From NCBI RefSeq assembly GCF_036588685.1, contig NC_086375.1, positions 33,046,001 through 33,110,000 of the forward strand: a stretch of DNA of 64,000 nucleotides, read 5' to 3'. Shown piece after piece: positions 5,999 to 55,098 of the stretch (position 1 is its first letter; every line of letters begins with the position of its first letter). The notes beneath the pieces are model-generated. The model was given only the letters and a program-made list of their open reading frames with translations, was not told where the DNA came from and made no database searches. This DNA comes from Mytilus trossulus (taxonomy: Eukaryota). The translations under genes and the position numbers were made by a program.

Positions 5999-6780
5999 TC
6001 ACTTAAATGTCCTTTTCCCGATAAACTTTCCGGGATCAATGAAGCTAAAACTGGAACTATTTCCACCAGAACTGAATGGATTGGTAAACTGTTGAGGAGT
6101 AAAATTTCCACCGGAAGTAGATGAACTGTTCCTAGATGAACCAGCACCACCGGTACCCCCGGTCCCTTTAAAGAACTGTGAAGGATCGATGAAACTTGGC
6201 ATGAAGTTTGGGTTGGTGTTGTTGCCATTCTGTTGAAATGAAGGATTCATGAATTGCTGTGGTTGAAAATTGGTTCCACTGGATGTAAAGTTTGGATTTA
6301 TAAACTGGTTTGGTGAAAGTTGTGGATTAGTGTTGGAAGTCTGTCTTTTTTCTGTAAATAAAACATGAAATACGTTGTTAGTTATTTTATTGGACCCTTT
6401 TTCCCTCTGATTATTTATAGCGATGTAAGGCATACAAAGTCGAAATCAACTGATTGACTATTATTATATCGCCTCTGTGCAGTCTTGTGCATGTATACGA
6501 ATCTACAACCAGTGTATGCGAATCTACAACCAGTGTTTATTGTTGTCAGTATAAATTTGAAAGTGTTGTATATCCGTACTTGAGTTTTTATACACCACAC
6601 ATACAAAAGAAACATTTATCCATAGTATATAGCTAGAGTCTCAGAAAAGCTCTAAAATATATGAAATTACGTCTCTACAAAATCAATAGAAAGTAGGAGT
6701 AAAAAAAAAATCCACCTACCTACAGATGGTCTGCCAATAACCACAGAAACCAAAAGAAGGAACATTACATAAGACGACAT
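5999..6780 (-). CDS. Gene B: small secreted Asn/Gln/Phe/Pro-rich FxNP-motif precursor, ~137 aa; exons 6780-6720 and 6351-5999
   Basis: Exon 1 reads MSSYVMFLLLVSVVIGRPSV with a G|GTAGGT donor. Acceptor TTTACAG| gives E-K-R-QTSNTNPQ... in the frame of ORF 5999-6433. Ends KFIGKRTFK. Confidence 0.85.
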
Positions 6781-9472: not shown

Positions 9473-12400
9473 TATCATTATATTCAAATTCAATATTAGG
9501 ACAATATCAGCCAATCAAATTGCGAGAAATTACACTAAATCAGGATAAATTGTCATATTCAATTTTAAATTTAATACTGTAAAAGAAGATTGATTGATTG
9601 ATTGTTGGTTGCTTAACGTCCAGTGGCTGTAAAAGAAGATATCTATAGAATGTATAAATGGTATATATATGTATATACACTGTCATACAACAAATGACTT
9701 CTAAATACATAATAATTATTTGAATAATTGTAGGAGAATTTTAACCCAAATTACACCTTATTTATATTCAATTGTAATGAAACCTTTAATGTATAAACCT
9801 TTTATACTTTTAAATACTTCGTTTTAGGTAAAGAAAAATCATAATTGATCCAAAGTGCAATTTGAGTCATATTTAACATGCAATAGAAATTTTAAACTGA
9901 CAACCTTTATACTCCACGTGATGAAAGTAGTGCATAATTGATGATGTTCTCGAACTTATTGATAACTCAAAATTTGTTGACTAGGTTGAACTAATCTATC
10001 CGATCGCACTCGATAAAGGATACAAAAGATACAGCAAAGTCAGCCTCCTATCTTGACCTAAATGTAAAAATTGTCAAGAGGGTCGGAGGAAAACAACGAC
10101 AAATGAGATGATTTTAGCTTCCAACTGGTGTACTGTTATTTGTCTTTCTACCTTTTATTTGCCATGGCGTTGTCAGTTTATTTTGATTGATGAATTTGAA
10201 TGTCCTTTTGCTAACTGTCACATCGCTTTTCCGTATAAAGAGTATACAATTTTACTAGATGAAGTACAGCTTCAAAGTGTTTCTGTTAGATACATTGCTA
10301 GAGATCAGGTTTCTGTGTGACGTAATTGCTTCCCTTTTTAGTAGATGCTTAGACAGTTTTGTTAGTGATTGAGCTTAGTAAGTACTTCTTTAGCTCATTT
10401 GGTTAAAGCACTGCCTTGTTACAACGACGTCACGGTGGAAAGAAAGTTGATTTTGTGTTTAGAATCATGCTCTCCGATTACACGTGTATGCCTACGCCTT
10501 GGCAATAAAAACGACAAATACAAACAGCAGTATACAAAACAGAACATATTTATCTGAAGACAAAGCAACAAAAACAACGCCCCGGAAGGGTAAGCAAAGG
10601 TCCTGCTCCACTTGTTTCACCCGTCGTGTTACTCCTATAACATAGATCAACAGTAGGCACCACATAATAGTGGATTGGTAATTGACTTGTGGATAGTTGT
10701 CTCATTGGCAATCATACCACATCTTCGTTTTTATATCTTATCGAGACATTGCCACTTTTATAAACCAGCGTTCAAGTAAATTTTCTAACTCTGAAGTTTT
10801 GCCAAATATGAAATTTTAAAATTAAAACACATTTTCCAAGACAATAAGATAGACTGGTTGATAACGGTATAAACAACAGGCATTCAAAAATAAAAAATAA
10901 ACATAAAAGAACAACAATCATAACTAAAGCAAGAGTTGCAAAATACAATTAAAAAATACAAGCGGTGACGTCACGTGCTCCTAACGGATAAACATATCTT
11001 GCTTTACACGTGAAACCCATTGTGTTGCTCATGAAAGTACCCCTGCAAGGATATATTTACTAGTAATTTTGTTAAGATTTAGATGTTATGATTTTTTTTC
11101 TGGGTTCGTGACATACTATGTAAGTATAAGTGTTAAAGTGCACTTTGCCACTGGACACTAAGCAACCAACAAACAATCATATTACAGAACACGAAAAATA
11201 CAATATTAAATAAACCAAACAAAGGTTTTATTATTTTATAATTTATATGAACAAAAGATACCAAAAAATCCTTCTTTGTGAACTTTTGTGAAAAAAAAGT
11301 GTCTCAATATTTTGGCCCTACCTCTCCTAATATTTGTAGATGTATAAACACAGCTTCGAAGGTATGTCTTTCTACTTTTATCACCGCGTTTCCACAGTCC
11401 TTATCAGTTGGAAATGATTACCCTTTACGGTCACCTATATTTAAGTGAACTTTTGTTTAAGGTTTTAATTCGAATTATAAAACTTTCAGGTTGTTTCCAG
11501 TTTCTTTATCATGCTTATATGAGAATGCAGATTATCAGCAATAATTTAGTTCCACCATGTTTCTATTGTAATCAATGCAGCGAAATGGTACCTTTACATG
11601 TATACGCTCTTGTTCCATTTCTAAATCGATTTTAGGTTTTGACTCTTTCCCAAGTGTGGTTTTATGCAGAAAATAGTTTATAAGGTCTACCTTTTAACAT
11701 GTCCTGTAGTTTGGTGGTAGTCTTTAGTTCGTGTCTGACACACTCGTAAATTGTTTTGTTATAAATCGATTAATTTGTTCCATATCGGGACCATTTATAG
11801 CCGACTTTATATATTGTTTGCATTTTTCTCTTTGATGAAGGCCGCATGGTTGCTTATAATTGCCTACACCAACTTCATTTGATCTTTGATGGATAGTTGT
11901 CTCATCAGTTATCATATCACATCTTCTTATTTTTATATGACTGCTTTATTTAAAATACAATAATGACTGAAGGAACTAGACAACAGAATTAAAAATATTT
12001 AGAAATTAGTTACAGTATACAGTAGTCCTATAATATAAGACTCTGGAGGTTCATATCATTTACATTCAACGTTTTTTATCGGATTTTTTTTTTTACTATC
12101 AATGTTGAACCCCAGAGTCTTATAAAATTTGTAACTTTTTCTCGTAGCAAAAATTTAAATTAATAATCCACTGCCAAAACAAATAAAATTATTAGGAACA
12201 ACCTAAATATGAATGAAAGTAACTTCTTACCGCATAAATAGTTTGAAATAATGTTACTAATCCATCACTTTTATCCTCAGTTGGCAAACAATTTTCTTCT
12301 CGCCATTTTATTTCAAATATTTGCGCCGATTCATAAATTTATGGATTTCGTGAATGAAACGAATTTGACGATATTATCTATAATCAGTATAGTACAACGT

Positions 12401-12805
12401 ACGAAAACACGACCAATTACTGTAATAGTGTCATGCAATTGATCTATACATTAAAGGCGGTGAGAGAATACAATTGGGGTTTACAGAATAGAGAACAATT
12501 GGCCAAAACATAAGTAATAGAAAATATGGGTTCTATTTTTTTTTTAAACTTGATGAAATGCCCGCCCCAAGAAAAAAAAAGTATAAGTACATTGTTTACA
12601 GTTGAAAGGAATAATGTCCAAAATACAGTCATAATGTATCAACAGATTAGTTAAAAATATGTTTAAACATAAATTGTAGGTATAACTTATCATTAATAGT
12701 TCGTACCCAATAATTCTTGTAGGCTAGTCAGTCAATCGTCGGTGAAATCTAGTATGTTGTGAGAGCTGGTGATACATGTCCTTCAAAATACTAGTTCATA
12801 CAACA

Positions 12806-12957
12806 GTGAGCGAGCCAATTCTCATTCACCGAAAGTTCTCTTGTCCAATTGTAAAGCATCAGCCGCAATAAATTTCTAGTTGTAAGAGCGGGGCGATAAA
12901 TTTATTTCAGAATACGAGTTCATTCACCGGGGTGAGCGAGCCAATTCTCATTCACCA
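12806..12957 (-). repeat. Left internal copy (~1.2 units) of the 126-bp repeat, inverted relative to the right array
   Basis: GTGAGCGAGCCAATTCTCATTCACC occurs twice and is the reverse complement of the unit at 19114-19770. Confidence 0.85.
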
Positions 12958-13088
12958 AACGTTATCGTGCATGTATCAATAGAAATAAATAATAGCTGGC
13001 GAAGCAACATTTGCATTGCAAAAATCGAGTTGTTACAAAGAATATAAGCAAGTTGTTAGAGAAGACAGTTGAGAAAAAATCGTCAATT

Positions 13089-14460
13089 TTAATCTCTCGG
13101 TGTTTGTAGAAACTCTTCAACACTAAATTTGCTCCTTTCTTGACAAGTACAGTTTTTTGAACACTCTGCACAACATTTACAGGCAGGACACCGGCACTGC
13201 TGCAAATCGCATCCTTCGCATTTCTTAGTATCTAATTTGTCTTCTTTGAAGTTGTCTACGGTCAATGAATTTACAATTTGACGTCTGATACAAGTGCTGG
13301 TGTTTTTTTATGATATCACGTATACATTTGCCGGTGGTTTTGAGCGACAAAGTAAAGTTATCATATAAAACAAAACTGAATCCATCTCTGCCATCCCTTG
13401 CGCATCTGCCAGCTTCTTGCCAATAGGACAACACTGATTTCGGACATCCTATATGAATAACAAGGTCTATGTCCCTGATGTCCAGTCCCATACCTAATGC
13501 GACAGTAGCAATTAAGCATCGGATTCTGCTATCTTCCCGTTTAAACTCTTTCAGGATGCGTTCTTTAGAGTCTTCCGATGTACTCTTATGGAACATTTCC
13601 ACAAGCAGGTTACTTGCCTTTTTATCCTGATTTGCATAAGCATGTAATTGAAGGTTGTCTTTTAAACACAAGAATAAATCGGACACCCTATCAATTGACC
13701 TACAGTAAACCACGATTTTCTTGGAATTTACTCCGTTTTCCCTGATATAATCAATAAGCCATTTTAGTGAAATTTCAAAATCATTACTGTCGCTTTTCCT
13801 TATTTCAATGAAGATGTTTGGTCTATCCGGTGACTTGAAAATAATATCTGTGTCAGCATCTGTCAACTGCAACGTTTCCATGATGTCATCCTTAACTTTC
13901 TGTGTGGAGGTTGCTGTCAGTGCCATTACGGGTGCACTGAAAAAACTTCTAAGTTCATGCAATGATTGATAGTCTGTCCGAAAATCTTCCCCCCATTCAG
14001 AAATGCAGTGTGCTTCGTCCACACATATCATACACAAACGAGACTGCCAAATACTTCCAAGGAAGACCTTCTTCCAGAATGGTTTCAGTACAGATTCGGG
14101 TGAAGAGAATATTAAATTATATTCTCCATTAGAAATGCCCCTTATAACGTCTGTTTGCATGTCTGAGCGAGATGTAATTTTTGCACACTTGATGTTCCAA
14201 TTTTCCAGGGTTGACATCTGATCGTCTATCAAAGACGATAACGGGGAAATAATAAGAGTTATAGGATTTTTGTCCATTTGTAAAATGACTGGCAACACCA
14301 TGCACATTGTCTTTCCAAAACCTGTTGGAAGCAGACACACAACATTCCTCTTCTGTAAGGCTGCTACAGCCACCTCAATCTGCTCTTCTTTCAGCTCAAA
14401 ATTTATATTGTAACTAGATTTAATCTCATTGAAGTTTGTGCGTACACTTTCGGCATCCAT
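13089..14460 (-). CDS. RecQ-like SF2 helicase of the Academ element (~456 aa after correcting a 1-nt frameshift at 13303-13309)
   Basis: Motifs LPTGFGKT, ISPLSSLIDDQ, VDEAHCISEWGEDFR, ALTAT, ATVALGMGLD and QEAGRCARDG. Removing one A from the A7 run gives KNTSTCIRRQI...CEGCDLQQCRCPACKCCAECSKNCTC (RecQ-type Zn-binding tail) ending at TAA 13091-13089. Confidence 0.88.
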
Positions 14461-14514
14461 CTCGACTTTTTAGCGCGCTTTTTCACGTCACATGATTCTA
14501 GTACATGTACCACC

Positions 14515-14902
14515 ATGGCCACGTGTTCTAACTGTGATCGAGAATTTGAAAAACGACATGACAATAAAGGATACTTTAGGTTTTCTTTGGAAAAGCCAAC
14601 AACCTCTGGTGGGGTAGCAAGAGAAGAGTTGTCAGCATTAACGGGTGTTCCGTTTACTCCTGTATCTAACAAACGTCAAGGTCAATTTTTGTGTCCATCA
14701 TGCTGGTCAAACCTTAATGACACTGTACGATATAAATCATCTTTACATGAACTTTGGGGAAATACTCAGGCCAATTCCTACATTGGAGGGAAGCGTGGCT
14801 CAGATGGAATAAAACAGTCTTCCACAGTAAAGAAACCAAGATTTACAAGTACCCCGTTGAAGGTATTTTTTTTATCCTTATATATATATGAAATTATCTC
14901 TC

Positions 14903-14964
<62 letters not shown>

Positions 14965-17900
14965 ATGAAATGTGTTTTATATTACAGCCGATTGCATTAA
15001 GTGTGTAGGTAAAGGTAATGGTATACTACCCTCTTTTCGAAGTAGATAGTCCTACAGACAAATAAACCGGTTATCTGTCGGACTAGTCTACTCTTAAAGG
15101 ATGGTAGTTGACATACTAATTATCCAAATAATGACTTCACGTTTAAGGTAGAAAGCAAGAAACAAATATTACCTTTACCTACACACCTAATGTAATCGGC
15201 TGTAAAAGAATAAAAATTCATCTGAACTGATTTGTCTTTTTGCGTAAGATTTCTCAATGCCCAAAACTTTTTCTTTCTAGGCCAAAAAAGCCGGGAAATC
15301 ATTGTTCCAGAAAAAAGCCACGAGGAGCTCAAAATGGGATTCCATAATAGGATTTGTGCGTGCGAGGCAGTATGGTAGAGCCATAAAAGGATTGTACGAG
15401 TCGACTAAGGGGGCGAAAAGACAATTTATGCGGTTTGTCAGTGGAGTTGTGCGTAAAGAAATAAAGAATGTTTTAAAACCTAAAACAACTTTCCCACTTT
15501 GTATGAAGGCAGATATTCCATCTATAACAGATTTCAGCTGGACCCAGACCTTGTCCGACTTTGAGAAATCAGCACCAATTACATACAACGTATTTAGAAG
15601 TGCTATAACACGGAAGTCTGAAGAAGCTACGTTGTGCAAAGGAAAAACAGTCAACTTAAAGCCAAAAATAGGAACAGCAGTTGCATATCTCCTTCATGCT
15701 AAGGCTCCAATAAAGGATTCCTTTATTCCTACGCTAGTATCTATCCAGTTTTGGCGGGGAAATCTCAAGCGAGATACTATCAAACAAATGTCAAAAATGG
15801 GGATCTGTAAGGGGTATGGGGCAACCCTTGCCGCTATAGATAATATCAGACGCGAGTTTGATTCGGCTGCAACATCTTGCAAAAGAGAAATTGAAGAACA
15901 GCTCACAAATGTCAATGACATATCAAACATGACCGTCATGGAGGAAGACATGGACGTGTCGAATGCTGTAGCAGTTACGGTGCCAAACATCGAAGACGAA
16001 ATTAATGAACCATCTGACTCGGATGATACAATCTCTTATGAGTATAGAGAACCAAATGAGGATGGATCTGAAGAAAGTGAGAGCGATATTACAGAGGTTG
16101 AGGATAATGATGAAGATTCTAAAGAGGATGAAAATGATGATATTGCCGAAGCATCAGATAACGAATCCATACATGATGTGTCAATTCGATCAGAAACCAA
16201 TCCTAAGTTGCAACCAGGTTTCTCAATGTGTTGGGATAACGTTGGTAAAAAAGTAACATCACGACACCCAACCCTTACTTCAACCAACAAGTATATCAAT
16301 ATGGCACTTGGCTACATGGCTGTAAATCGTGTTACGACTACAAATCTACCATGGCAGTTTGACGATACAGTAAAAAAAGCCATAGAATTGCCGCAAGAAA
16401 TTTTCTTTCCCAGTCAAACAGATTTTAAAAACGTCAAAAACAGAATGGAAATTATTGTTGGTCGTATCATAGGTCGTCATTTAAAATGGTTTAGTGATAA
16501 TATTAGCGATTGCATTATACCACACGTTGTTCATGGCCATTCTGCAGAGTCTGCTCATAGAAGTGTGCTCGTAAACTTGGGCGTGTTTGATGTTAACCCA
16601 TCTTCAACACAAGGTGCCATAACTATATATGAAAATCTGCAACGATATGTTCCATCAATAGCCGGAAACCCTTACACGACAGCTGTTTTTGGTGATGGGC
16701 TTAGTTGCGAGAGGGGAAATGATGCCCACAGGGCGAGGGCTAACGGTCTTAATCCCTGGGATAGATTGGAAGGATGCGAACCTTCAGCACAAGAATTCCA
16801 CAAGGAAATGCTGCTCCTTCAGGATTATTATGATTTATTGTTTAAAGGATCTAGTGCAGCAGATAGAGGCACGTTAGTCCATTTGAAAAAATTATTTAAC
16901 TTCAGAACAGTAAAATCCGACGTTTCCGATAATTTTACTCATGCCTGGGAATTGATGTGTCTAGCCACGGAGGGTTTTGTTTGCTTATTAACAATGCAAA
17001 TTACGGAAATGGAAGATGCAGATAGTGAGCCTGCAAATATTGAGACCACGCTTGTTAATGATGACTTTGAACAACGTAATCAGTACTTTACGGATGTATG
17101 CAGCACTGTCGTTCAAAGATTATGGCATACACTGAACACCAATGCTCTCACAGTGGACGATGGGACTGGACCACCCGTATTTTGTTGTGGAGAAGATTTG
17201 GACGACGACACAATTGCATGCTCTGCAGGAACAAACTGTACACATGGAGAAGTTTTCCATTACATGTGTGCAGATATCGATCCGAACAACCTACCCGAAA
17301 ACTGGCACTGCACTGATGAATGTAGAAACCGTACTAATTTGTACGCGTTTTGCCATTGCAGACAAAACTTGGGAAATGACGAGCCGATGATAGATTGTAC
17401 GGCTGGATCTGCTTGTACAAACAGAGAATGGTATCATATGAAATGTGTCCATATCAATCCTGAAAATGTTCCAAAACGCGACTGGTTTTGTCATGATGCC
17501 TGTAAAACAGCTAAGAGAGGCAAGAGAAAGCGAGGAAAGAAAAGTGTTGACAAACCAGAACAAGTTTCGGATCATATTTATAACTATAGTCGTTCAATGG
17601 CCTGGCTGGGTTTGAATTTATTGTGTAGACGAGATGCAGTACGGGAAGCAGATGGCAATGCAATGATTACACATTGGAAATTAGATCTTGTTCATTTCTT
17701 TGCCTCAAAACATCCAAAATATCTTATTCTGGCGCATAGGTTACTGGCATCAGTACATGGCTGGCTACCGGAGAAGTTACGGGAGGATATCATCCACAAT
17801 CGGACAGTGAATTACGGTGGTGGCATAGGGCGGAATTTGCCGATGGATTTCATGAATGAGATATTGAATAGACTGTTTAAAGAATTGCTGAGTTGTGCAA

Positions 17901-18235
17901 AAGGGCAGTACACTAATGCAACCATACAACGTTGTAGTCAGATAATTGGGCCACTTGGAGAGGCTTTAGATACCGTGTTCGATTCACAAGTGGTGGAAAA
18001 CGAATTGTACAGACATAGACGTAGGAGTGGTAACCGCGATGAAAATGTCAAACAATTAATTTCATTCCTACAAAATGATAAGTTGTTTGCATTTACAGTT
18101 GGTCGCAATCATAAGGCGTTTCCTGATTTTCAGTTCAGCGAAAATCCCCGCAATCCTGGACAGTTTCAGCCGAAAATGATTCAACTATCAAAAAAACTTG
18201 ACAAAAGGAGACGAGTTATTTTAAATGATGATTAA
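14515..18235 (+). CDS. AcademH-type transposase with an N-terminal C4 zinc motif and two PHD fingers, ~1100 aa; exons 14515-14862 and 15281-18235
   Basis: Donor AAG|GTATT at 14863 and acceptor TTTCTAG| at 15280 join in phase 0 to ORF 15302-18235. Features: CSNC...CPSC, an acidic linker, candidate catalytic motifs WDN / FGDGL / DFMNEILN, two PHD-like fingers at ~17170-17505, and an NLS-like KRGKRKRGKK. Confidence 0.88.
14897..14962. repeat. (CT)n microsatellite in the transposase intron
   Basis: Visible TC dinucleotide run; it explains the SLSLSL tail of ORF 14515-15000. Confidence 0.95.
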
Positions 18236-18366
18236 CAGCTAATTTTCAGTTGATAATATTTTTTTCAACGGTCAATTTTGACGAGGTGTATTATTTTACA
18301 TTGTTACAGTTTATTGATTAAAGGCGGGAAACTTTATCACGTGGTATAGGAACATCGTGTACAAAA

Positions 18367-19077
18367 ATGTCCCTCAGCAATTTACAGAAGCAATTGGATC
18401 GTTTTGAAGATGAAGTTTTCTTTGATCGTGTTCAAAGAAGGAAAGCTTTTCTGTTAACAGACAGTAAAGGTCGTTACTTAAAAGATGTTGTTCAGCCGCT
18501 GGAACGTATAGTGGATATTGTGTATAAGGGCGGGGCGAAAATTGATGATGCGGTTTTATACCAGGATCTAAGACAGAAAATTACAGGTCTAGACAACCCA
18601 TTGATTTTAATTTGGCTGGGAACTTGTGAGTTAACAAGAAAGACCGGAAGATACATTTCCATCAATACAGAAATTTCAGTACCCGATGTGCTAAATAAAC
18701 TAGGTAACTTGAAAGAAAAAATTCTAGCTGTGAACTCATCGGCTGAAATTATATTTTTAAAGTGTCCAGCTTATTCGATTAAGCATTATAATAAATATCA
18801 TCACCATCCCGACAGTGAGTCGTTTCACGACGATGACTCCATTTTACAAGACAAAATTCAAGATTTAAACGACAAAATAGTTGATTTGAACACAAACTTT
18901 CCGGGACCTAATTTTTCATTGGATCTGTTAAAAAATACAAAAGTAAATAAAGGACGGCGTTCAAAATATGTCTTTATGTTTAAAGACTTGTATAAAGATG
19001 GAATACATCCATGTCCAACACTTGCAATGGTTTGGTTGAGAAAAATTCAAAAGATAGTCTGTACATTGTGTTTTTAG
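18367..19077 (+). CDS. SGNH/GDSL-hydrolase-like protein inside the Academ element, 236 aa
   Basis: Intact ORF with block I FLLTDSKG, block II GG, block III IWLGTCE and block V DGIHP, in the expected order. Confidence 0.75.
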   Translation: MSLSNLQKQLDRFEDEVFFDRVQRRKAFLLTDSKGRYLKDVVQPLERIVDIVYKGGAKIDDAVLYQDLRQKITGLDNPLILIWLGTCELTRKTGRYISINTEISVPDVLNKLGNLKEKILAVNSSAEIIFLKCPAYSIKHYNKYHHHPDSESFHDDDSILQDKIQDLNDKIVDLNTNFPGPNFSLDLLKNTKVNKGRRSKYVFMFKDLYKDGIHPCPTLAMVWLRKIQKIVCTLCF

Positions 19078-19113
19078 TTTTCAAGGGAAATATTTCTAAT
19101 AACATTTCATACG

Positions 19114-19770
19114 GGTGAATGAGGATTGGCTCGCTCACCCCCGTTGTATGAACTCGTATTTTGAAATAAATTTATCGCCTCTCTTACAACTAGAAATTCA
19201 CTGCTGCTGATGCTTAACAATGTAACAAGAGAACTTTTTGGTGAATGAGAATTGGCTCGCTCACCCCCGTTGTATGAACTCGTATTTTGAAATAAATGTA
19301 TCGCCTCTCTTACAACTAGAAATTTATTTCTGCTGATGCTTAACAATATGACAAGAGAACTTTTTGGTGAATGAGAATTGGCTCGCTCATCCCCGTTGTA
19401 TGAACTCGTATTTTGAAATAAATTTATCGCCTCTCTTACAACTAGAAATTTACTGCTGCTGATGCTTAACAATGTGACAAGAGAACTTTTTGGTGAATGA
19501 GAATTGGCTCGCTCACCCCCGTTTTATGAACTCGTATTTTGAAAGACATGTATCGCCTCGTACGCTCTCTCAACTAGAAATTCATTTGTGCTGATTCTTA
19601 ATTTGGAGAAGAGAATTTTTGAATGAAAATTGGCTTGCTCAACCCATGCACTCGTATTCTGATTGACATTTGTCGGCTCGGCCGCTCTCACAGTAAGCAA
19701 TTCATATCTGTAAATGGTGAACAACTTGGACAAAAAACTTTTGGTGAATGAGGATTGGCTCGCTCATCGT
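19114..19770 (+). repeat. 126-bp tandem array (~5 units, last two degenerate) inside the Academ element
   Basis: GGTGAATGAG recurs at 19114, 19240, 19366, 19492 and 19743, with a degenerate copy near 19618. Confidence 0.92.
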
Positions 19771-20434
19771 GAACTCTTGAAACGAATTTATATAGCTGTC
19801 ATGACCCAACTGGATCTTAATTTCAATTTAATTAGAATAAAGAAAAGAGAAAAATCGGATTTCATAATTAAGGTTGGTATCTTTTAAATCATTTCTATTC
19901 AGGCGTTCTCCTTTTAAGATGTTTAATGGAATCAGATTTCGATTCGTTGTTTGTTTCTGTTACACATTCTTTGCATTTGTTTTGGTACGATTTGTTTATT
20001 TGTTTTTGTCGTTGGATTGTCTCCACATAAAAAAAAAACATTGAATATTTAAACTTTTCATGCAATTTTACCATTGTTTAGTTGCGATGTCTTATTGAAG
20101 GGATTAAACTATGAAATTAGCCGTAATCAAAAGGAGATGTGGTATGGAAGCCAATGAGACAAAAGCCGACCAAAGCTTTACTCTGCAAGCATTATGAAAT
20201 TAGCCGTAATCAAAATTGTAAGGAGATGTTGAAAGGAAGCAAATAAGACAACATAATTTTTACATTAACAAGACTTAAAATGAAGTCGATGTAAGCAATT
20301 TATACCATATGGCTTTCCTCAACAGCTGAAAAATACAGCCGTTATGGCCATCATAAAAAAAAACTCGCTGTAATATGGCAAAGCATGGAAACAAAATATG
20401 TAAAGCAGGTAAATAAAGAAAGCCAACTACCTTA

Positions 20435-20657
20435 GGGACGACATCAAAAGTTCAATGTACGAAAAAAGAACTTAATTCACATAGTTTTTTCACTGACACC
20501 CCCCTCTTAACTTAATTTGGGAAAAAATTATTTACCGATAGGGATATATGTAAAAATCGATTTTACATATACAAAACTTGCAGAATTTTACCCCCCCCCC
20601 CCAAACTATTTGATTTAAGTTTTTTTTTATCCTACATCGATCTTTTGATGTCGTCCC
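20435..20657. mobile_element. PIF/Harbinger-like MITE nested in the Academ element
   Basis: TIRs GGGACGACATCAAAAG / CTTTTGATGTCGTCCC; TTA duplicated at 20432-20434 and 20658-20660. Confidence 0.8.
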
Positions 20658-21389
20658 TTATTGATACATGTATTGATTGTCACCATTTCCACATTTGACC
20701 ATTATTTTCATGAGACAGCAAACTTATTTTCAATAACTCTTTGGAGAAATATTCACCGTATAATTCCTGTTGTTATCGGAAAATAATATTCATTTATACA
20801 ATCATCCATTTCCTTTTTATGAATGCTATATGGTCGCCTCTTAAGTGTTAAGAAACATTTCATGATAAGCTTGCTTTTATTAGAATTAATTTACATCATT
20901 TCATCGTTCATTATCACCTGAAAGTCAATTCAGAATTCATTTTCCAAGGAATATTCTGAAAAATGTACAACTGATTAACATTCGGAAAGACCTGCGGAAC
21001 TTCTCGTTCTTGACCCGCTTGACAATTTGAAATGAGGGGGGGACAGTTTGAAAAGTTGTTATAAAAAGGATATAAATCCATCACATGATAAGGTAAGACA
21101 TTTTTTTTATTATTTGAGATGTTCATTTGTAAGGATAATGACATAAGTTAACTTAAAACTGTCGTAAACATTGTAAAATTGTTGTTCAAAGTTCCCACAA
21201 AAATTCGTTGGGAATTTGCTACGAGAAAAAGTTACAAATTTTATAAGACTCTGGGGTTCAACATTGATAGTAAAAAAAATCCGATAAAAAACGTTGAATG
21301 TAAATGATATGAACCTCCAGAGTCTTATATTATAGGACTACAGTATACAGATAATAACATAAGAAGTTTTATGTACATTTTAAATGCTT

Positions 21390-22939
21390 TTATTTCTTTC
21401 CAAAGCTATTTGGATCAAAGTTTGCAGATGGAGCCTTGTTCGGATCGAATGTGCCTGATCCCATACTATTTGGAGAGAATGATCCTGCACCCATAGAGTT
21501 TGGATTGAAACTCCCGGATGGGACACTGTTCGGATTAAAACTTCCAGCTCCAAGACTACTTGGTTTGAAGGATCCAGCTCCTAATTTATTTGGGTCAAAT
21601 GTTCCAGCTCCAGAGTTTGGACTAAACTTGCCAGCTGCCATCTTATTAGGATCGAAACTTGCTGTGCCATTTGTATTGAACATGCTCAATGATGCTAAAA
21701 CAGAAAAAAAAATTTGATTCAGTATATTATGGGTACTATAAAGTGATCAGTTTCGATTTATTTTGAGAAAAAAATAACATACGACAGCTACATGTAGTTA
21801 GGATATTTGTACTTCAATTTAAGCGAGTAAGAACTGATTGTCTCATATTGAGTTTCCTGGCGACAAATAACTTCGTAAGGTGCAGAATTTGTCGGATATA
21901 TCTGAAATTGATGCCCTCAAATCTTTAAATGAAACATTGTATTTCAGTTATACACATCTGGCTTTCGTCTTTTCCAAATTTTGTCTTAGGAATTATGTTG
22001 ATTTCAATAATAAGAAAAAACTTAAACGTCACACCAAATGATAAAACAAGTACTTAAAATTACTGAACTCCAAGATAAGTTCAAAAGAGTGATCGCTTTT
22101 CCGTTGATTGACGAATACCTCTACCTCTCGTTTTAGTCATAAGGGAGCCACCATTTGATTTTTATGGGGGGGGGGGGCTAGGATGAAATTTGAAAAAAAT
22201 AGGCAGGACAGGAGTTTTGAGTTAAAAAAAAAGGCAGGATGAGACACTTGCAAAAGAAAAAAAGTCAGGATGACAATTAATTTAAAAAAAGTCAGGATAA
22301 ACTAAAAAAAAAAAAAGCAGGACCGGATAGAGTGAAAAATAAAAAGGCAGGACAGAGATTACAACTAAAAAAAAATGCAGGACAAAATTTTTCATCCTAG
22401 CCCCCCCCCCCCCCCCCCCATAAAAATCAAATGGTAGCTCCCTAAGTGTAACCCATATCTTATGTTGAACAAACCACGATAATCGTTTCAGCAGTGTAAA
22501 TGTTGGTTTGTTATACTAGTATTATTGAGTATTTTGCATTACTTGCAATTTTTTTTAACGATTAGAGACTCTTTTAAAATGGAAAGGTACTTATCTATCA
22601 AATGTTAAACAAATTTAGAAGAAATAAGTACTAAAAAAACTTATCAATGCATATAGCCTATTGTAAAACAACATACAGATAGACCACCTTATTATATATA
22701 TTACTTGTAAAATAACCGAAATCAACCTTGTGCTTAAATTCCGTTATGAATTTTTCTCAGAGTTCAGTTTTTTTGCGATTTTACTCTTTTTACATTCGAA
22801 AAAATAAAAAATAACTTATGAATTTGAACCTATCAACATTTTCTATTGTTATATTTGTGAATAGAATAATAAAATAAGATATATTCTTACCACTATAGCA
22901 TGTTGGAATTAAAACAGTTAAAAATATTAACAAATTCAT
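21390..22939 (-). CDS. Gene C: small secreted ~decapeptide-repeat protein (consensus GAGSFNPNSM), ~117 aa; exons 22939-22891 and 21694-21390
   Basis: Exon 1 reads MNLLIFLTVLIPTCYS with a G|GTAAGA donor. Acceptor TTTTAG| is in frame with ORF 21390-21689. Nine F-x-P units; ends SFGKK-stop. Confidence 0.87.
22143..22442. mobile_element. PIF/Harbinger-like MITE in the gene C intron
   Basis: ~45-50 bp TIRs (GGGAGCCACCATTTGATTTTTATG..G-run..CTAGGATGAAA), TAA on both sides, internal AAAAAGGCAGGA repeats. Confidence 0.8.
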
Positions 22940-24716: not shown

Positions 24717-25619
24717 TTATTTTCCAAAACTATTGAGCTTGTTTGGATCAAAGGTCCCACTTCCGGTACCACCATTAAGTTTATTCGGGTCAAAGGTTCC
24801 AGTTCCACTTCCACCACTACCAAAACCAGTTCCGGAACCAAAACCTCCTGTTCCACTTCCACTTCCTGTACCGAAACCACTTCCTCCAAATCCAGTTCCG
24901 CTTCCGAAATTGTTTACTTTATTAGGATCGAATGTTTCAGTTGTCCCAGATGGAGCAACAGTCGATGCAGCAAATGTGGTCATGGAGCCGGCAAATGTTG
25001 ACATGGAGCCGAATCCAGCTCCTCCAAAGTTCTGGTTCAAAGCGTTTGGATTAAAACTACCACCTGTGCCAGATCCGAATCCACCACTGCCGGCCGCGAA
25101 ACCACCAGTACCAAAGTCCTTGTTTAGAGCATTCGGGTCAAATGTTCCATCTGAAATGGAACATATTTATACATTAAATGATAAACCTTCTCAAAATCTT
25201 TTTCACATACCATATTAGTATTCCCATCTCAAAGTAGGAATATCAAGCCATAATTTTATATCATATATATTCATGTCATGTATTCCAAATAAATTTATGA
25301 CCGGTAAGAAAATTGATGATGAATCAAGTATCTTTTGCTCCGTTGCACTGAATTATATTATATTCACTATAATATACCTGGTATATTATTACTTGAATTT
25401 CCAAATCTTATATTAATGACATTTATATCAAGTGTATAGTTAAATATGGATTTGCTTAATGACATAATGTTGTAGAAACTCAAGGCTAGTATTTTCACAA
25501 AAGTCTTATTCTATTCAAACTTTGAATTCTTTTCATAATTTTGATTTGATATGCTTACCAGATAGTGGAGCCGACAGACATGCTGGTAAGAGACAAAGAA
25601 GAGCTAAACAACCCTTCAT
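24717..25619 (-). CDS. Gene D: secreted Gly/Phe/Thr-rich FDPN-motif protein, ~164 aa; exons 25619-25559 and 25150-24717
   Basis: Exon 1 reads MKGCLALLCLLPACLSAPLS with a G|GTAAGC donor. Acceptor TTTCAG| gives DGTFDPNALNKDFG... in frame with ORF 24717-25040. Ends SFGK-stop. Confidence 0.87.
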
Positions 25620-25973
25620 TTTGACTTTCGATGATGATCTGACGAAAGCGTGTCTGGATAAGTCTTCTCCACTTCATTATCTTAAGTTACGATAAGACTT
25701 GACACAAATCCTATATACAGCTGACTGTAAAAGATGGGTCTTTCGTTGTACAAGATACCATATATTTCCATCATGGTTAAATATAAATTAAGACTTTTCA
25801 AATTTCTTAAAAGATGTCATAAAGATGCTGACTATAAAAAAGCAATAAAAGATGTTCAAATATTTTTTTATTATCCGTTTCATTATTTTCATAAATTTAT
25901 GTACATACATAGTAAGAACACATCTAAAATACTGTATCAGCTATTATCGATTAAAAAAAACATTGACTATTCG

Positions 25974-27428
25974 AATAAAATCAACGGTACCAATTTTGTT
26001 GCACCAGATGCGCATTTCGACAAAACATGTCTCTTCAGTGATGCTCGTGGCCAAAATATTTGAAATCCAAAGCTTATATAAAAGATGAAGAGCTATAATC
26101 TAAAAGGTCCAAAAAGTATAGTCAAATTCGTGAAAGGAATCAGAGCTTTGCATGAGGGAGATACATTCCTTAATTTATAATAATTTCTAATATTTTGTAA
26201 CAGCAAATTTTAATAACACAAAAAATCCGTATTTTCATGCCAGTACCGAAGTACTGGCTACTGGGCTGGTGATACCCTCGGGGACTAATAGTCCACCAGC
26301 AGAGGCATCGACCCAGTGGTAGTAATAAAATCAACGGTACCAATTTTGTTGCACCAGATGCGCATTTCGGCAAAACATGTCTCTTCAGTGATGCTCGTGG
26401 CCAAAATATTTGAAATCAAAAGCTTATATAAAAGATGAAGAGCTATAATCTAAAAGGTCCAAAAAGTATAGTCAAATTCGTGAAAGGAATCAGAGCTTTG
26501 CATGAGGGAGATACATTCCTTAGTTTATAATAATTTCTAATATTTTGTAACAGCAAATTTTAATAACACAAAAAATCCGTATTTTCATGCCAGTACCGAA
26601 GTACTGGCTACTGGGCTGGTGATACCCTCGGGGACTAATAGTCCACCAGCAGAGGCATCGACCCAGTGGTAGTAATAAAATCAACGGTACCATTTTGTTG
26701 CACCAGATGCGCATTTCGACAAAACATGTCTCTTCAGTGATGCTCGTGGCCAAAATATTTGAAATCCAAAGCTTATATAAAAGATGAAGAGCTATAATCC
26801 AAAAGGTCCAAAAAGTATAGTCAAATTCGTGAAAGGAATCAGAGCTTTGCATGAGGGAGATACATTCCTTAATTTATAATAATTTATAATATTTTGTAAC
26901 AGCAAATTTTAATAACACAAAAAAATCCGTATTTTCATGCCAGTACCGAAGTACTGGCTACTGGGCTGGTGAAACCCTCGGGGACTAATAGTCCACCAGC
27001 AGAGGCATCGACCCAGTGGTAGTAATAAAATCAACGGTACCAATTTTGTTGCACCAGATGCGCATTTCGACAAAACATGTCTCTTCAGTGATGCTCGTGG
27101 CCAAAATATTTGAAATCCAAAGCTTATATAAAAGATGAAGAGCTATAATCTAAAAGATCCAAAAAGTATAGTCAAATTCATGAAAGGAATCAGAGCTTTG
27201 CATGAGGGAGATACATTCCTTAATTTATAATAATTTCTAATATTTTGTAACAGCAAATTTTAATAACACAAAAAAATCCGTATTTTCATGCCAGTACCGA
27301 AGTACTGGCTACTGGGCTGGTGATACCCTCGGGGACTAATAGTCAACCAGCAGAGGCATCGACCCAGTGGTAGTAATAAAATCAACGGTACCAATTTTGT
27401 TGCACCAGATGCGCATTTCGACAAAACA
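25974..27428 (+). repeat. 350-bp tandem array (4 near-identical units + 55 bp)
   Basis: AATAAAATCAACGGTACC recurs at 25974, 26324, 26674, 27024 and 27375. Diverged relatives at ~46140-46500, 54235-54870 and 62270-62640. Confidence 0.95.
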
Positions 27429-29444
27429 AATGGTTATTCAGGCATCCAATATATTGGTAGATGCACGAAGTTGTTTCATAATTTGAGTGGGCGTTGCATC
27501 TTTTGAATTAAGTAGTACATCAGTTGCATGCTCTGAATACTTAAAACAATTGCTCAAATTCATTGAACATTTTACGTTTTAAATATTTAGCTGTATCAAA
27601 TGAAATTTTTAACATAGATGTGGAATTTTAGTATAGGATTTGAATTGTTGGACATAAGATTTTGATATGTTTACTTAACTTCTATTTACCATGCGGAAAA
27701 GTGTGGTTCAATAACTAGGAATCCGTTCTGATTTCTGCACGTGAAGCTGATCTAGACTTAACCAATAATCTTTAATTAGGATTCCTTTCTATTTACTTGA
27801 AATTAAGGTTAAAAAGATTAATATTTAAGTATTATTATTTGTGTAAATGCTGTTCAATACAACAAACAAGATTTCATTCATAATGTGATTAACAAGATTT
27901 AAACATGCTATTCATTGAATGGAAGCATTTTCAACAGGTCATGAACCTTTTTACAATATATATTTTTCATCGATCTGAACTTTGACATATGGTATATTTT
28001 CCCCTTTCAAATTGATGGATCATTTTAATCCAAATTCTGACTGTAAACCCGGAAAGTTCAAAATAAAAAAAGACCTAACAACATAACCAACAGATTTTTT
28101 TTCTTTTCTAAATGCATCAACAAGCATGTCCGTCGGCCAACAATAAGTTAAAATTATCTCCCTTCGTGCCTGTCGACCACTAATGCAGGACCTACTAGTT
28201 GTTTATTTGTTCTCGTTTTGACAATGAAATGAATTGAACGTACAGGGAACAGCAATAAATCGTTGTGTTATAATAATTTATCGAATTTAATTTACACCTG
28301 TTTTGTTTGGTAACTTTCTTAAAGTTCAATTTGAATAAAAGTGTAGAATTTGTGAATTCTGGATACCACAGCAATAAAAAATAATGTAAAGATAATAATG
28401 GAATAAGTCACGCAGAAGACAAATAACATATTTCATTTGTGCTTATCTGAAACCTGTTCCCCGTTCCCATTCTATGACATCACCAATTGTCCAGTACACA
28501 CCCTTGACATCATCTAACTTTATTTTGTAATGACTCCTTTTAATATAAAGGAGATATATGTGACTGTCAACTTAATGAGAGGTTAAGCTAGCTATATAAC
28601 CAGGTTTAATCCAACATTGTCTACTTAAGGAAATGGCTTATCAAATCAGGAATATGACAGCAGTTTTCCATTCGTTTGATATGTTTGAGCTTTTGATTTT
28701 GCCATTTCTAAAAAGTACCTTTTGTTTTGAATTTCCCTTGAAGTTTGGTATCTTTGTTATTTTCTTCTTTTCTTCTATATAGCAATATGGTACATAAAAA
28801 CAGTGAATTCTCTCTGTCACGAAAAAAATAATCAAATTGTATATCTTTATCTGAATTTTTTATAAAAAGGTATATGGTATATTAACATGAAAATGCAAAA
28901 TATACTGATAGTTCAAAATGATTCCATCAAACACTGATGATCTTAAATTGAAGATATACATGCATTTAACTCATTATTTCTCAATCTATTGGGATTTTAG
29001 ACATCTTATAGCGAAATTCTATATATGACTATTTTCATCAAAGATGATGCAAGTGTACGAAATTGTGATGTCGTCAATATATATGAATATGAAAATATCT
29101 GAATAATTAAAGGCAACAGTAGTATACTGCTGTTCAAAAGTCATAAATGAATTGAGAAATAACAAATCCGGGTTACAAACTAAAACCGAGGGAAACAAAT
29201 CACCTAAAAGAAGATAACGATGGAACATATATTGTTCAAACTAACAAAATGACAACCATAAATAAAAATATCCCAAATTAACAAAACAATAACGGCTAAC
29301 AATTTTCTGAAAGCGTCTCGGCCTACACAAAATGAATTGTTATTGTCCTTATCATTTGAGATAGATTTTAAAGTTTTATATCAAAATAATTTCTACAAGA
29401 CCATTTAGGACATTGCTTACATGTGTATTGCATTGCTTAAATGC

Positions 29445-51500: not shown

Positions 51501-54500
51501 AATGATGAGTGGAGCTAATTCAGTGATGACTCCAGGTGGAAGCAGTGGCGGGAGTACTGGAGCCAGTAGTGGAGGGGGAATGAATTTGAATCCAATGAAT
51601 ATGATGAGCAGTATGACGGGAGGATCCGGAAGCGGAAGTGGGAGTGGTACAAATCCCATGAACGCAATGTTGGGAGGAACATCTGGTACATCCAGAGGCG
51701 GAAGTAAGAGTTTTGATCTCTTACATTTCTAATAGTTACAACTTCAAAAAAGAAAGTTTAAATGAAAAATGTTATGCTTTTTTTTCACCCAATGCTTTGC
51801 GCTTTGGTTGTTTGGGCATTTTTTATGTGGTTGATATTATGAAATGCTTGATGTAGCTTGGTGCTTAGTCTTATAATATATGCCTTCGAATTATTTTTCT
51901 CTTTTATGCGGATATTTTCTTTATTTGGTTTTGTTGCTACATTGATAGTAAAATAAATCGAAAAAAAATTCACAAATATCAAACTGAATGAAAAGAAAAT
52001 ATCAGAAATAAAATTAAAAAAAATAATGGCCCGAAGTCATGTGTTATAGGACTAGCTTTGTTTTGTGCTTTGCACACGCTTCTTTTAAGACTTTTAGACA
52101 ATATTTATTTTAGACAGTGGCTCTGCAAGTCAAAGCGGAGGACAGACGGGTGGTAATCCGTTGGATCCTTTAGGGGCGATGATGGGTAGGTGGAATATTT
52201 ATCTATATAATGTGATCATTATAGCCGGTATTTGGCCTATCAAATGGCAGAATATCAAAATTGTCAGTTTGTATATAGGTTTTAGGTAAAATTGTGAATA
52301 CGAGCAACATTTATTTCATTCACATCAAATGTATTACAAGATTCAGTTGCGAAATAGTATATAGTTTGCTTATCTCTATGTTTTAAAATGGACCTTTTGA
52401 TTATAAACAAATGTAAAGACCTAAATTCAAGTAATTTGTCAAAATAATGTCTTATTAACATTTGAAACACTTAAGTTGAAAAAAAATGAAAAAAAAGTAT
52501 TTTCTAACTTAAAGGCCTACCATTGTTTTCCATCTATTAAACATACTTATTATTGCATCTCTGAACTTTTGAAACTTTCGATTTATCAAATGACAGTTGT
52601 TATAGCATGTCATTGAAGTACATACATTTGTTTTCTTAGAAACTTGTAATTCTGTTTTATTTTCATTACACCTTCACTTTTTATGACACTACTTTTGTTG
52701 TCTTTATTTTCATAACTCGAGGCTTGTTACGTATTAGAATCAACATCTTGTATATGTGTTTATCTTATTGTATTTATTTTGTAACAGGAGGTGCCCAGAG
52801 GTTTGCAGGAGGTAGTAATCTGATGGATCCCATGGGTTTTATGAATGGTAACTGAATGAAGTTTCGCTTTTCTCTGCTTGATTTTGTATCAATCTAAAAT
52901 ATATGCTAATTTGTTTACCAAAAAAATATTATTTAAAGTCTTGTTTTGTTAGAATTTCAGATCATTTATATCAAAGTATCATCATATGTTTACGTGTACT
53001 TGTTTACTATTAAACGTCTGCTGTATTGATACAAAATTATACCTTTGGCGCCATATCGTAAAACAATTAGACCCTGCATGCCTTGTTTGCCCCGAAAACT
53101 GATCTAAAAAATATAAAACATCGTGTTGGTAAGCAGTTTGAAAAACCATATGTGAGAAGACAATTTTGAAAATTTGTAGCAATCCTAAATCAGAGAAACA
53201 ACTTATTGCTGTTCCTAATATACATATTTCACAAAATCATATCGGACCATTTTCAAAAATACGTAGCACATCCAATACAATTTTGTCCAACAAGTTATTC
53301 TTCATGCAAAACCTGGCGTAGATTTAATTTCTAATCAATGAATGTATTTCAGGAGGTGGACAAACTGGTAAATTTGGAAACCGGTTTTCTGTACCCTTAA
53401 CAGGTACGTACAACTTAATAATATATGTTGACCATAGTTAAAAGCTGAAGATACAACATACTAAATAAATGCATCGATAGATATAATATAATAATTAATT
53501 TCATAAATTATAACTTTAAACATGAAGAAGACGTAGTTGTATGGATTGCAAAAAAAAAACAAAAAAAACGGTTGCTCAATGAATATGCCACAACAATCTT
53601 GTGAAGATTGGAAATAAATATTGTTTTTATAAAACTGATAATTTTCAAGATACAAGATATCTATATCTCGTTTCGCAGACGTTAACTTATCATTATCGGT
53701 TTGATACTATATCACCCGTGACGTAGCTCGGACAGGTGCATTTCGATTACCAAGATGTCAACCAAGTTATTGTTTTGTGTATATTTTGTAATTTCAGGGA
53801 GATCTTTGCAGATAGAAACGGGTAAGTAATCTATTTTTTATTCAAACATTTACAAATATATAGAATAAAAAAATTAAGAGTCTGCAGATACCAAGAGCCA
53901 ATCAAAATCCATAAGTCGAAGTGAAACAGACACACGGCTAAACGTTAAAACGACGTCAAAAAGAAAATACATAGAAAATTGACTTAAGTAGATTTGGATC
54001 GTTTTTATAAAATGTTAACAAAATTATAAAAATTAATTTGAATGTAATTATTCAGAATGGAAAAGGGGAATGAACCACATAATTTACAGGATAATTTTAT
54101 TTGACACATAACAGTTTGGCAAACACTAATTATGATCATTGAGAAACTTGTTTTTTCCTTAGGTGTATTAAGCCTTTTAAAACATACTACAGCCCACACA
54201 ACATATCACAGACGTATTTGATTAAATTGAAAATAAACTCGTCATAGATACAAGTATTAAAATTCTATATTTGTGCAAGATGCGCTTTTCGTCTACAAAA
54301 TACTCATCATTAAAAAGTCAATTACAGTTCGAAGTTGAAGAGCATTGAGAACTAAATGTTCCTTAATTTTTTTCCAAATACAGATAAGTTAATCCATTCC
54401 TGAGTTAAAAAAGCCGTTGTATTTCAAAAATTCGAAATTTCGTAAACAGTTAATTCATAATTATGACTATATCAATGACAATTCATTTCAACACATGAGT

Positions 54501-55098
54501 GCTGACTACTGGGCTGGTGATACCCTCGGGGAATAAAAAAAAATCCACCAGTAGTGGCTTCGACCCAGTGGTTGTAAATGAACTCCTCATAGATACAGGG
54601 ATTAAAAAACGCGCGTTTCGTCTTCAAAAGAATCACCAGTGACACTCGAATAAAAAAATGTAAAAAAGCCAAATAAAATACGAAGTTGAAAAGCATTGAG
54701 GACCAAAAACGTTTTGCAAAATACAACTAAGATAATTCATTCACGAGTTAGAAAAGCCTTAGTATTTCAAAAATTCTAAGTTTTGTAAACAGTTAATGTT
54801 ATTATGACCATACCAATGACAATTAATGTCAACACAGGAGTGCTGACTACTGGGCTGGTGAACCCCACGGGGAATCAGTTGATAAACAGACTTTGACTAT
54901 CAATAAGAAAATACTGCTATACAAGAAGATGAATATACACTAAATTTACATTATGTGATAAACTGCAAACCCATAAATAGAATTACCTTAGAATATCTGA
55001 AACAATAAAATCAACTATCACCATAACCATTAATTTTCTTTCTAGGGAAGGATAGTTCCTTGTTGTTGGCTAGAATTTTACAACACTCAGTACCGTAA
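48501..55098 (+). CDS. Gene G: secreted Gly/Ser/Gln/Met-rich FNPN-motif protein, ~644 aa; exons 48501-48567, 49412-50629, 50950-50994, 51359-51703, 52114-52185, 52788-52847, 53353-53403, 53798-53821 and 55046-55098
   Basis: Exon 1 reads MAPLNTIFTFLCMVSLTKTDRN with a G|GTGAGT donor. All internal exons are GT-AG, phase 1-1, multiples of 3 and stop-free. AATAAA at ~55244. The last three small exons are less certain. Confidence 0.75.
54235..54875 (+). repeat. Two diverged tandem units related to the 350-bp array, in the last intron of gene G
   Basis: Shares CTACTGGGCTGGTGATACCCTCGGGG...CCACCAG...TCGACCCAGTGG with 25974-27428. Confidence 0.75.

Follow-up and report, generated by a model that had tools for sequence, protein, structure and literature searches.

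Why transposons carry esterases has been a standing question since esterases were discovered in ORF1 of LINEs. The locus described here raises it for a DNA transposon with terminal inverted repeats (TIRs). In the window (the whole 64,000-nucleotide stretch of Mytilus trossulus DNA that was analyzed), an AcademH transposase gene is followed on the same strand by an open reading frame (ORF) with the motifs of an esterase.

The AcademH element and its esterase ORF

The transposon is a full-length, 9.3-kb element at positions 12023-21340. Its TIRs of about 130 bp (left, 12023..12151, plus strand, starting with TAGTCCTATAA; right, 21215..21340, minus strand, identified by repeat comparison and ending with TTATAGGACTA) are flanked by 10-bp target-site duplications (TSDs), of which the left one (CAGTATACAG, 12013..12022) is identical to the right one (21341..21350). 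A copy on contig C12 aligns from position 12023, and the left terminus is common to three subfamilies of the element. A left inner (subterminal) repeat (12756..12966, minus strand) is inverted with respect to a right-hand tandem array of 126-bp units (19114..19766, plus strand), found in a repeat search of the window. All four relatives compared at both ends share the terminus and have TSDs, which are 10 bp long in three of them and 9 bp in one. A helicase gene and TSDs of 9-10 bp are given as defining traits of AcademH (PMC10045372), and the window element has TIRs, a TSD of this length and a helicase gene besides the transposase.

The helicase gene (13089..14460, minus strand) is of the SF2 type (DEAD, E 6e-24; Helicase_C, E 8e-22), and we name it RecQ, presumably correctly, after its motifs. 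In this copy it has a one-base frameshift near 13303-13309, in a poly-T run; copy L051 contains an intact ORF of 459 aa. The RecQ genes of subfamilies 2 and 3 (L053-L057) have an intron near codon 112, and those of subfamily 1 have none. The divergent start codons of RecQ and transposase are separated by a 54-bp gap (14461..14514), which holds what we take to be E2F-like and CACGT/ACGT-like words. Similar words are present in both other subfamilies. Judged by its sequence, the gap is likely a bidirectional promoter of the two genes.

The transposase (plus strand) has a predicted exon 1 of 116 aa (14515..14862; GT donor, phase 0) with a zf-AD-like zinc finger (E 3e-4, below the cutoff) and an exon 2 of 984 aa (15281..18235). 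Exon 2 encodes a DUF6589 domain (E 3e-29), which we take to be the Academ transposase, with inserted PHD-type fingers (E 0.035 here and 4e-5 in the transposase of subfamily 3). Animal AcademH includes a PHD-bearing sublineage. The acidic motifs of the transposase (WDN, GDG and the Glu of MNE) are conserved. In related Academ families (L071, L072 and L085), the counterpart of exon 2 is split into several exons, suggesting intron loss in the lineage studied here. The transposase intron harbors a small fold-back element with 51-bp arms (14969-15218), which is matched by many loose-ended RNA reads from other loci.

Several observations concern the surroundings of the element and its termini. The 19-bp TIR terminus has 479 exact matches in the genome; among the 100 listed, many form pairs ~170 bp apart and some lie 2-9 kb apart. 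The ~170-bp pairs make it likely that the AcademH family drives MITEs. Minus-strand, low-complexity Gly/Ser/Asn/Phe frames with FDPN-type motifs are located on both sides of the element (5999-6445, 21390-21746 and 24717-25166). They are likely exons of one host gene, in an intron of which the transposon would have inserted. At 25870-27570 there is a 350-bp tandem array, the core of which recurs at 54460-54875 and 62496-62609.

The esterase ORF (18367..19077, plus strand) extends from an ATG at 18367 to a TAG at 19077 and encodes 236 aa. A spacer of 131 bp (18236-18366) separates it from the transposase stop codon, which ends at 18235, and the inner repeats begin, with a 126-bp unit at 19114, 37 bp past its end. 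The initial annotation had described an intact, intronless ORF on the transposase strand, 131 bp past the stop codon and within the inner repeats, and coordinates and repeats agree with this description. The Ser and DxxH positions that it had reported as retained can be read directly in the translation, in the motifs TDSKG (Ser33) and DGIH (Asp211 and His214), as can GTCE (85-88). SGNH enzymes have GxND where this ORF has GTCE. The substitution is present as annotated, but it is not peculiar to the element: in the family alignment, the block III position is Cys (Cys87) in 226 of 231 members and Asn in 4. GTC[DE] is a trait of the whole esterase family. The other blocks are similarly conserved, with Ser33 in 228, Gly56 (block II) in 214, Asp211 in 216 (14 gaps) and His214 in 216 (12 gaps) of the 231 members. 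This alignment omits 15 of 92 loci, in which the domain is not intact, and 13 of 166 proteins, which were too short.

Sequence searches alone do not yield the SGNH assignment, which comes from the predicted fold. The sole Pfam match of the ORF was a weak one to DUF7585 (E 0.009), and no match better than E 0.08 came out of sequence searches against the PDB. Among the 35 aligned relatives, 7 match Lipase_GDSL_2 at E<=0.1, the best of them at 2e-4. In the ESM Atlas, unnamed mollusc and annelid clusters came first (0.98-0.95) and a GDSL cluster followed (0.94), which is a lead only. The closest named homologue, from Mytilus coruscus, is 91% identical. An AlphaFold2 model built on the 35-sequence alignment (mean pLDDT 94.3, pTM 0.90) has the three-layer alpha/beta/alpha fold of SGNH proteins. 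With this model, Foldseek returned 59 matches at E<=0.001 (best E 5.5e-6), those listed being SGNH/GDSL proteins or SGNH-type scaffolds. VIA-align placed a GDSL lipase first (Z 15.7, rmsd 2.9, 176 aligned residues) and PAF-AH next (Z 15.1). At the level of the predicted model, the SGNH identity put forward in the initial annotation is thus borne out.

In the model, Ser33 (block I) follows strand E27-31, and D211 and H214 (block V) precede helix H217-235; these residues are invariant in 35/35 sequences. The predicted triad is Ser33-Asp211-His214, with Gly56 and, at the Asn position, Cys87. The protein would be an "SGCH" variant of the fold and so, by its sequence, not a canonical SGNH member. 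It has no hydrophobic leader; its N terminus is modeled as an 11-residue amphipathic helix (moment 0.6-0.7), and its net charge is +6 to +9. By analogy with the ZfL2-1 esterase, helix and charge are compatible with binding to anionic membranes. Longer fused forms were not found among 7993 candidates (weak evidence), and an HMM of the esterase had no match below E 0.8 in 28 transposase homologues (10 of 36 transposases were omitted from the comparison). Judged by these searches, esterase and transposase are separate proteins.

Conservation, selection and the upstream motif

A search of the same genome with the esterase yielded at least 153 matches, and 150 of 317 candidates were scored. At least 13 loci, belonging to three subfamilies, have the esterase directly behind an AcademH transposase; 9 are intact and 4 decayed. 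Subfamily 1 comprises the window copy, L051 and L052 (intact) and L059 and L060 (decayed); subfamily 2, L053-L056 (intact) and L130 (decayed); and subfamily 3, L057 and L058 (intact) and L061 (decayed). In each of the three subfamilies, full elements match in their termini and are flanked by duplications of 9-10 bp. The gene thus occurs beyond this copy; its presence in this copy alone is what the initial annotation had named as a refuting outcome.

Between subfamilies, the esterases are 44-51% identical in amino acid sequence, with pS of 0.63-0.76 versus pN of 0.35-0.39 and omega of 0.26-0.40 where dS was estimable. The transposases are 58-67% identical (pS 0.79-0.86, pN 0.23-0.29). Intermediate esterase pairs gave omega values of 0.34 (14 synonymous and 18 nonsynonymous changes), 0.31 (19 and 23) and 0.22 (5 and 4); other intermediate pairs, which are decayed, gave 0.69 and, for the two halves of one decayed copy, 0.76 and 0.10. 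Among young subfamily-1 copies, omega was 1.4-1.7 for the esterase (1/6 and 2/10 synonymous/nonsynonymous changes) versus 0.34-0.65 for the transposase, a difference that is not significant (Fisher p 0.21 and 0.48). RecQ had an omega of 1.0 in one young subfamily-1 pair. Neutral evolution, also named beforehand as an objection, does not describe the comparison between subfamilies, where pN is below pS. In our reading, the esterase has been under purifying selection in the long term, less strictly so than the transposase, and young copies change neutrally.

Subfamilies 2 and 3 are closest to each other in transposase (67%) and RecQ (64%) and are grouped in the esterase tree (98/87); pairwise esterase identities alone do not separate the subfamily pairs. 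The identities of the three genes are broadly compatible with shared descent. Of the earlier proposal of a third functional gene in a transposase-PHD + RecQ + SGNH module, the linkage stands in at least 13 loci and the gene is conserved and selected. The word "functional" rests on this conservation, and the module is specific to one lineage rather than a general AcademH trait. Within that lineage, the comparisons give us considerable confidence that the esterase is a selected third gene.

These values also bear on the view that the esterase is a passenger, a captured LINE ORF of no further use to the element, which persists because it drifts slowly, was selected in the past or happens to benefit the host. 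In line with it are the omega values above 1 in the youngest copies of subfamily 1, the weaker constraint compared with the transposase and the near absence of RNA on the ORF (see below), and GDSL ORFs of rotifer LTR elements likewise have no clear departure from neutrality within genomes, in the part of that study consulted (PMC5408684). However, the ORF has stayed open across saturated synonymous divergence in three subfamilies, and any transposon gene is expected to change neutrally in its young copies, as RecQ also does. Moreover, the upstream motif described in the next paragraph is kept in all subfamilies and absent from 67 other esterase ORFs. We regard retention as a mere passenger as improbable.

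The spacers between transposase and esterase are 131, ~690 and ~390 bp long in the three subfamilies and, by eye, look unrelated except for a conserved non-coding motif, GCGGGAAA-N-CACGTGG (18324..18344, plus strand), which sits ~15-30 bp before the esterase ATG. We take GCGGGAAA to be an E2F-like site and CACGTGG to be an E-box. Both words were found upstream of 8/8 intact Academ relatives and of 0/67 other esterase ORFs (2 of 77 ORFs were omitted from this count). Genome-wide (1.3 Gb), the pattern GCGGGAAA-N3-7-CACGTGG has 10 matches, every one just upstream of an Academ esterase, versus 2 matches for the reversed control. Since the pattern was derived from the same Academ loci that it scores, its conservation across subfamilies and its absence elsewhere are what is informative. 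The location of 10/10 genomic matches at the same upstream position makes it likely that the esterase has its own promoter, for which the motif is the candidate. In the 5' regions of four LINEs (L148, L151, L155 and L157), AAAATGGCG, which we take to be YY1-like, is located ~70 bp before the esterase ATG and partly overlaps an E2F-like word.

RNA data neither prove nor exclude such a promoter. Four raw runs were inspected: reads of X23 were scattered over most of the esterase ORF at ~1x in both orientations, X21 had few reads, at the 3' end, and X22 and X24 had none on the ORF. Contigs of X2 run from the transposase into the esterase (17573-18685), as would be seen with read-through or with DNA. 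A contig of X3 (one study) begins at 18349, just past the motif, with a gap upstream; contigs cannot show starts, and it is no promoter evidence. A loose end of X3 before 15279 mismatches the predicted transposase exon 1. A test for a shared or spliced transcript with the transposase had also been suggested. A fusion by splicing to the AG at 18308-18309 was rejected because of an in-frame stop codon at 18319-18321.

Alternatively, the protein could be a transpososome or gap-repair cofactor, perhaps made from a read-through transcript, which binds nucleic acid or the transposase/RecQ via a basic hairpin (188-203), like the RNA-binding OSK domain of Oskar. Its basic net charge, the retrieval of the OSK domain by the structural comparison (Z 13.0), the tight linkage and the X2 contig spanning both genes would suit such a role. 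It is at odds with the near-invariant triad positions, whereas Oskar is non-catalytic (PMC3905857, in part), and with the upstream motif that belongs to the esterase itself. In addition, members of this protein family work in LINEs and Gypsy elements, where there is neither transposase nor RecQ, and other AcademH families do without the esterase (see below). We consider a cofactor role unlikely.

The retroelement esterase pool

Elsewhere in the genome, the esterase family is the leading ORF of LINEs and Gypsy elements (52/59 contexts). Neither this pool nor the upstream motif figures in the initial annotation. The 59 other contexts, of 10 kb each, comprise 46 LINEs, in which the esterase precedes the LINE ORFs (PHD and/or AP-endonuclease-RT), 6 Gypsy elements, in which it precedes gag-pol, and 7 unassigned ones (a few LINE/Gypsy labels were assigned by eye). 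No match to the transposase or RecQ was found beside these 59 esterases. Grouped at 50% identity, the whole family makes up 1789 clusters when E<=0.001 is required and 272 when the limit is E<=1e-30. A metagenome scan gave 28 relatives (26-37% identity) in loci that were LINE, Gypsy or too short, with Academ linkage in 0/28; in viral contigs and prokaryote genomes, 0 of 2 pattern matches and 0 of 15 matches, respectively, were confirmed.

Some of these retroelements have features of their own. In six Gypsy elements (L031, L048, L113, L125, L135 and L139), the esterase ORF is upstream of gag and is not an ORF3, and the Gypsy label needs two changes on the esterase tree. At L097:4211-5589 (G000:C14, near 32.907 Mb), a Gypsy-family esterase ORF, 97% identical to that of L048, is flanked by 205-bp direct repeats without gag/pol, and this locus is likely an LTR-esterase-LTR mini-element. 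L111 has only the Gypsy-family esterase ORF and one 205-bp repeat. The LINE behind the esterase at L035:5615-6133 contains the peptide GDIESNPGP near the start of the next ORF (L040 and L044 are listed with it), which presumably resembles a 2A ribosome-skip sequence.

In an IQ-TREE phylogeny of 91 rows (13 near-duplicate loci dropped, 26 of 153 database proteins kept), the Academ copies and 14 context-less database proteins form one clade (100/98). This clade has a stem length of 0.24 and is joined (100/97) to a group holding the LINE-linked L039 and L117; downstream of the L117 esterase are PHD, endonuclease and RT ORFs. With the midpoint root of this tree, capture from a LINE is parsimonious and its direction is not proven. 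From tree and contexts, we judge a LINE origin of the esterase to be highly probable.

Within 10 kb of 20 other Academ transposase loci, no esterase was found (best E 0.81); the 20 include one truncated member of the esterase-bearing lineage and one locus with Ns. The gene is thus dispensable for AcademH in general. The transposase lineage that carries it is separate from the sampled esterase-less families (long branches flagged), and transposase relatives 50-59% identical are named from Pinctada, Ruditapes, Mizuhopecten and Mytilus.

The reverse direction would make the esterase ancestral to the Academ lineage or host-derived, with retroelements taking it from there. A root placed only at the midpoint and the long stem of the Academ clade leave some room for it. 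However, diversity is far greater among retroelements (several LINE architectures and Gypsy, besides the 272 clusters), the other sampled Academ loci have no esterase, and the ORF is intronless; we find this origin very improbable. Ordinary nesting of a recent LINE fragment in one transposon copy, which a retroelement-borne family might bring to mind, was rejected and has a negligible probability: the esterase has the same position in all of the at least 13 loci of three deep subfamilies and forms a single tree clade, no endonuclease- or RT-sized ORF follows it within the element, and the closest retroelement ORFs among the matches scored are only 33-39% identical to it.

Proposed role and comparison with known systems

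The explanation that we prefer, and hold to be reasonably probable as a whole, makes the ORF a conserved third gene in a single AcademH lineage. Its product, predicted to be an SGNH acyl-ester hydrolase, probably derives from a single capture of a LINE gene, is probably expressed from an E2F/E-box-like promoter that belongs to the gene itself, and would be directed at a host lipid or acylated host protein rather than at a step of cut-and-paste transposition. A LINE with a leading esterase ORF would have entered an ancestral AcademH element; the rest of the LINE would have been lost, and a new cis-motif would have arisen. This motif may activate the esterase in germ cells or cycling cells, along with RecQ and transposase, whose shared gap holds similar words. 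As a free and soluble enzyme, the protein would hydrolyze esters or thioesters, for example in a lysophospholipid or a palmitoylated protein, with Ser-His-Asp as its catalytic residues and an oxyanion hole made up of Gly56 and Cys87. Its target may more likely be the host, for membrane passage or a dampened defense, than the nucleic acid of the element, since LINEs, Gypsy elements and a DNA transposon differ in their intermediates.

Because three element types keep the enzyme and most AcademH families do without it, a host-directed acyl hydrolase is favored over a cofactor or a passenger; taken by itself, this role is one on which our judgment is evenly balanced. Cut-and-paste transposition has no RNA intermediate, yet the esterase is kept under selection, apparently with its own promoter, which separates its role from RNA packaging. 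This suggests that the benefit of the esterase extends beyond RNA-packaging elements to mobile DNA of all kinds. More speculatively, and less likely than not, the widespread "SGCH" esterase could be a portable accessory recruited by LINEs, Gypsy and AcademH, which deacylates a host membrane lipid or a palmitoylated defense protein for germline entry or survival of mobile DNA of any chemistry; AcademH would have added a cell-cycle promoter and may keep the gene across bivalves. The data document that a class II element has likely received a gene from class I, and they define a three-gene AcademH sublineage, with transposase relatives in several bivalve groups. They also offer a small, stand-alone protein, predicted to fold well, for substrate and knockout tests.

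A literature search covering neither Repbase nor the original AcademH description turned up no TIR transposon, Academ or other, described as carrying an esterase, and the main text of a bivalve transposable element survey does not mention esterase or SGNH (PMC10294476). An esterase in AcademH is provisionally new; a Helitron-borne SGNH gene is a published precedent (PMC4021074, in part).

With AcademH, the element shares TIRs, a DUF6589 transposase with PHD-type fingers, an SF2 helicase gene and 9-10-bp TSDs. It differs in carrying, as a third gene, an SGNH esterase preceded by a motif of its own, in the single long exon 2 of its transposase and in the position of RecQ, which is head-to-head upstream here. 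Of 13 other sampled Academ loci with RecQ, 11 have this gene tail-to-tail downstream.

SGNH esterases in the ORF1 proteins of non-LTR elements, mentioned in the initial annotation, are described for CR1/L2, RTEX and Penelope, with a structure for ZfL2-1 (PMC3905857, in part, also for what follows). They have the SGNH fold and a Ser/Asp/His triad, both predicted for the protein studied here as well, and, like it, are borne by mobile elements and patchily distributed. The ZfL2-1 type is marked by an H191/S228 signature and a long N-terminal coiled-coil region ahead of the esterase, whereas the AcademH protein is a stand-alone one of 236 aa with a short amphipathic helix. The latter also differs in having Cys for the oxyanion Asn, in being borne by a DNA transposon and in having no sequence match to a PDB chain. 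The ZfL2-1 esterase is active and binds anionic lipids but not oligo-A RNA; it had no histone deacetylase activity, depalmitoylation was proposed, and ORF1p was dispensable in HeLa cells. The favored role of LINE esterases is assembly of RNA-protein particles on membranes.

Captured accessory enzymes also divide the Kolobok superfamily (KolobokH with RecQ, KolobokE, KolobokD and KolobokP); those named act on nucleic acids, and the paper mentions no esterase or hydrolase (PMC9587614). The GDSL ORF3 of bdelloid LTR and Penelope-like elements is an extra esterase ORF exchanged between unrelated elements. There, it is shared among retroelements only and no DNA transposon is mentioned (PMC5408684), whereas here the likely transfer is from class I to a cut-and-paste element of class II. 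The texim genes of fish Helitrons resemble our case in being SGNH genes on a DNA transposon; they are testis-expressed and were proposed to aid transposition. However, according to parts of that paper (PMC4021074), they are multi-intron genes on a rolling-circle element, treated as captured host genes, whereas a TIR/DDE-type element here carries an intronless ORF whose nearest kin of known context are LINE ORFs.
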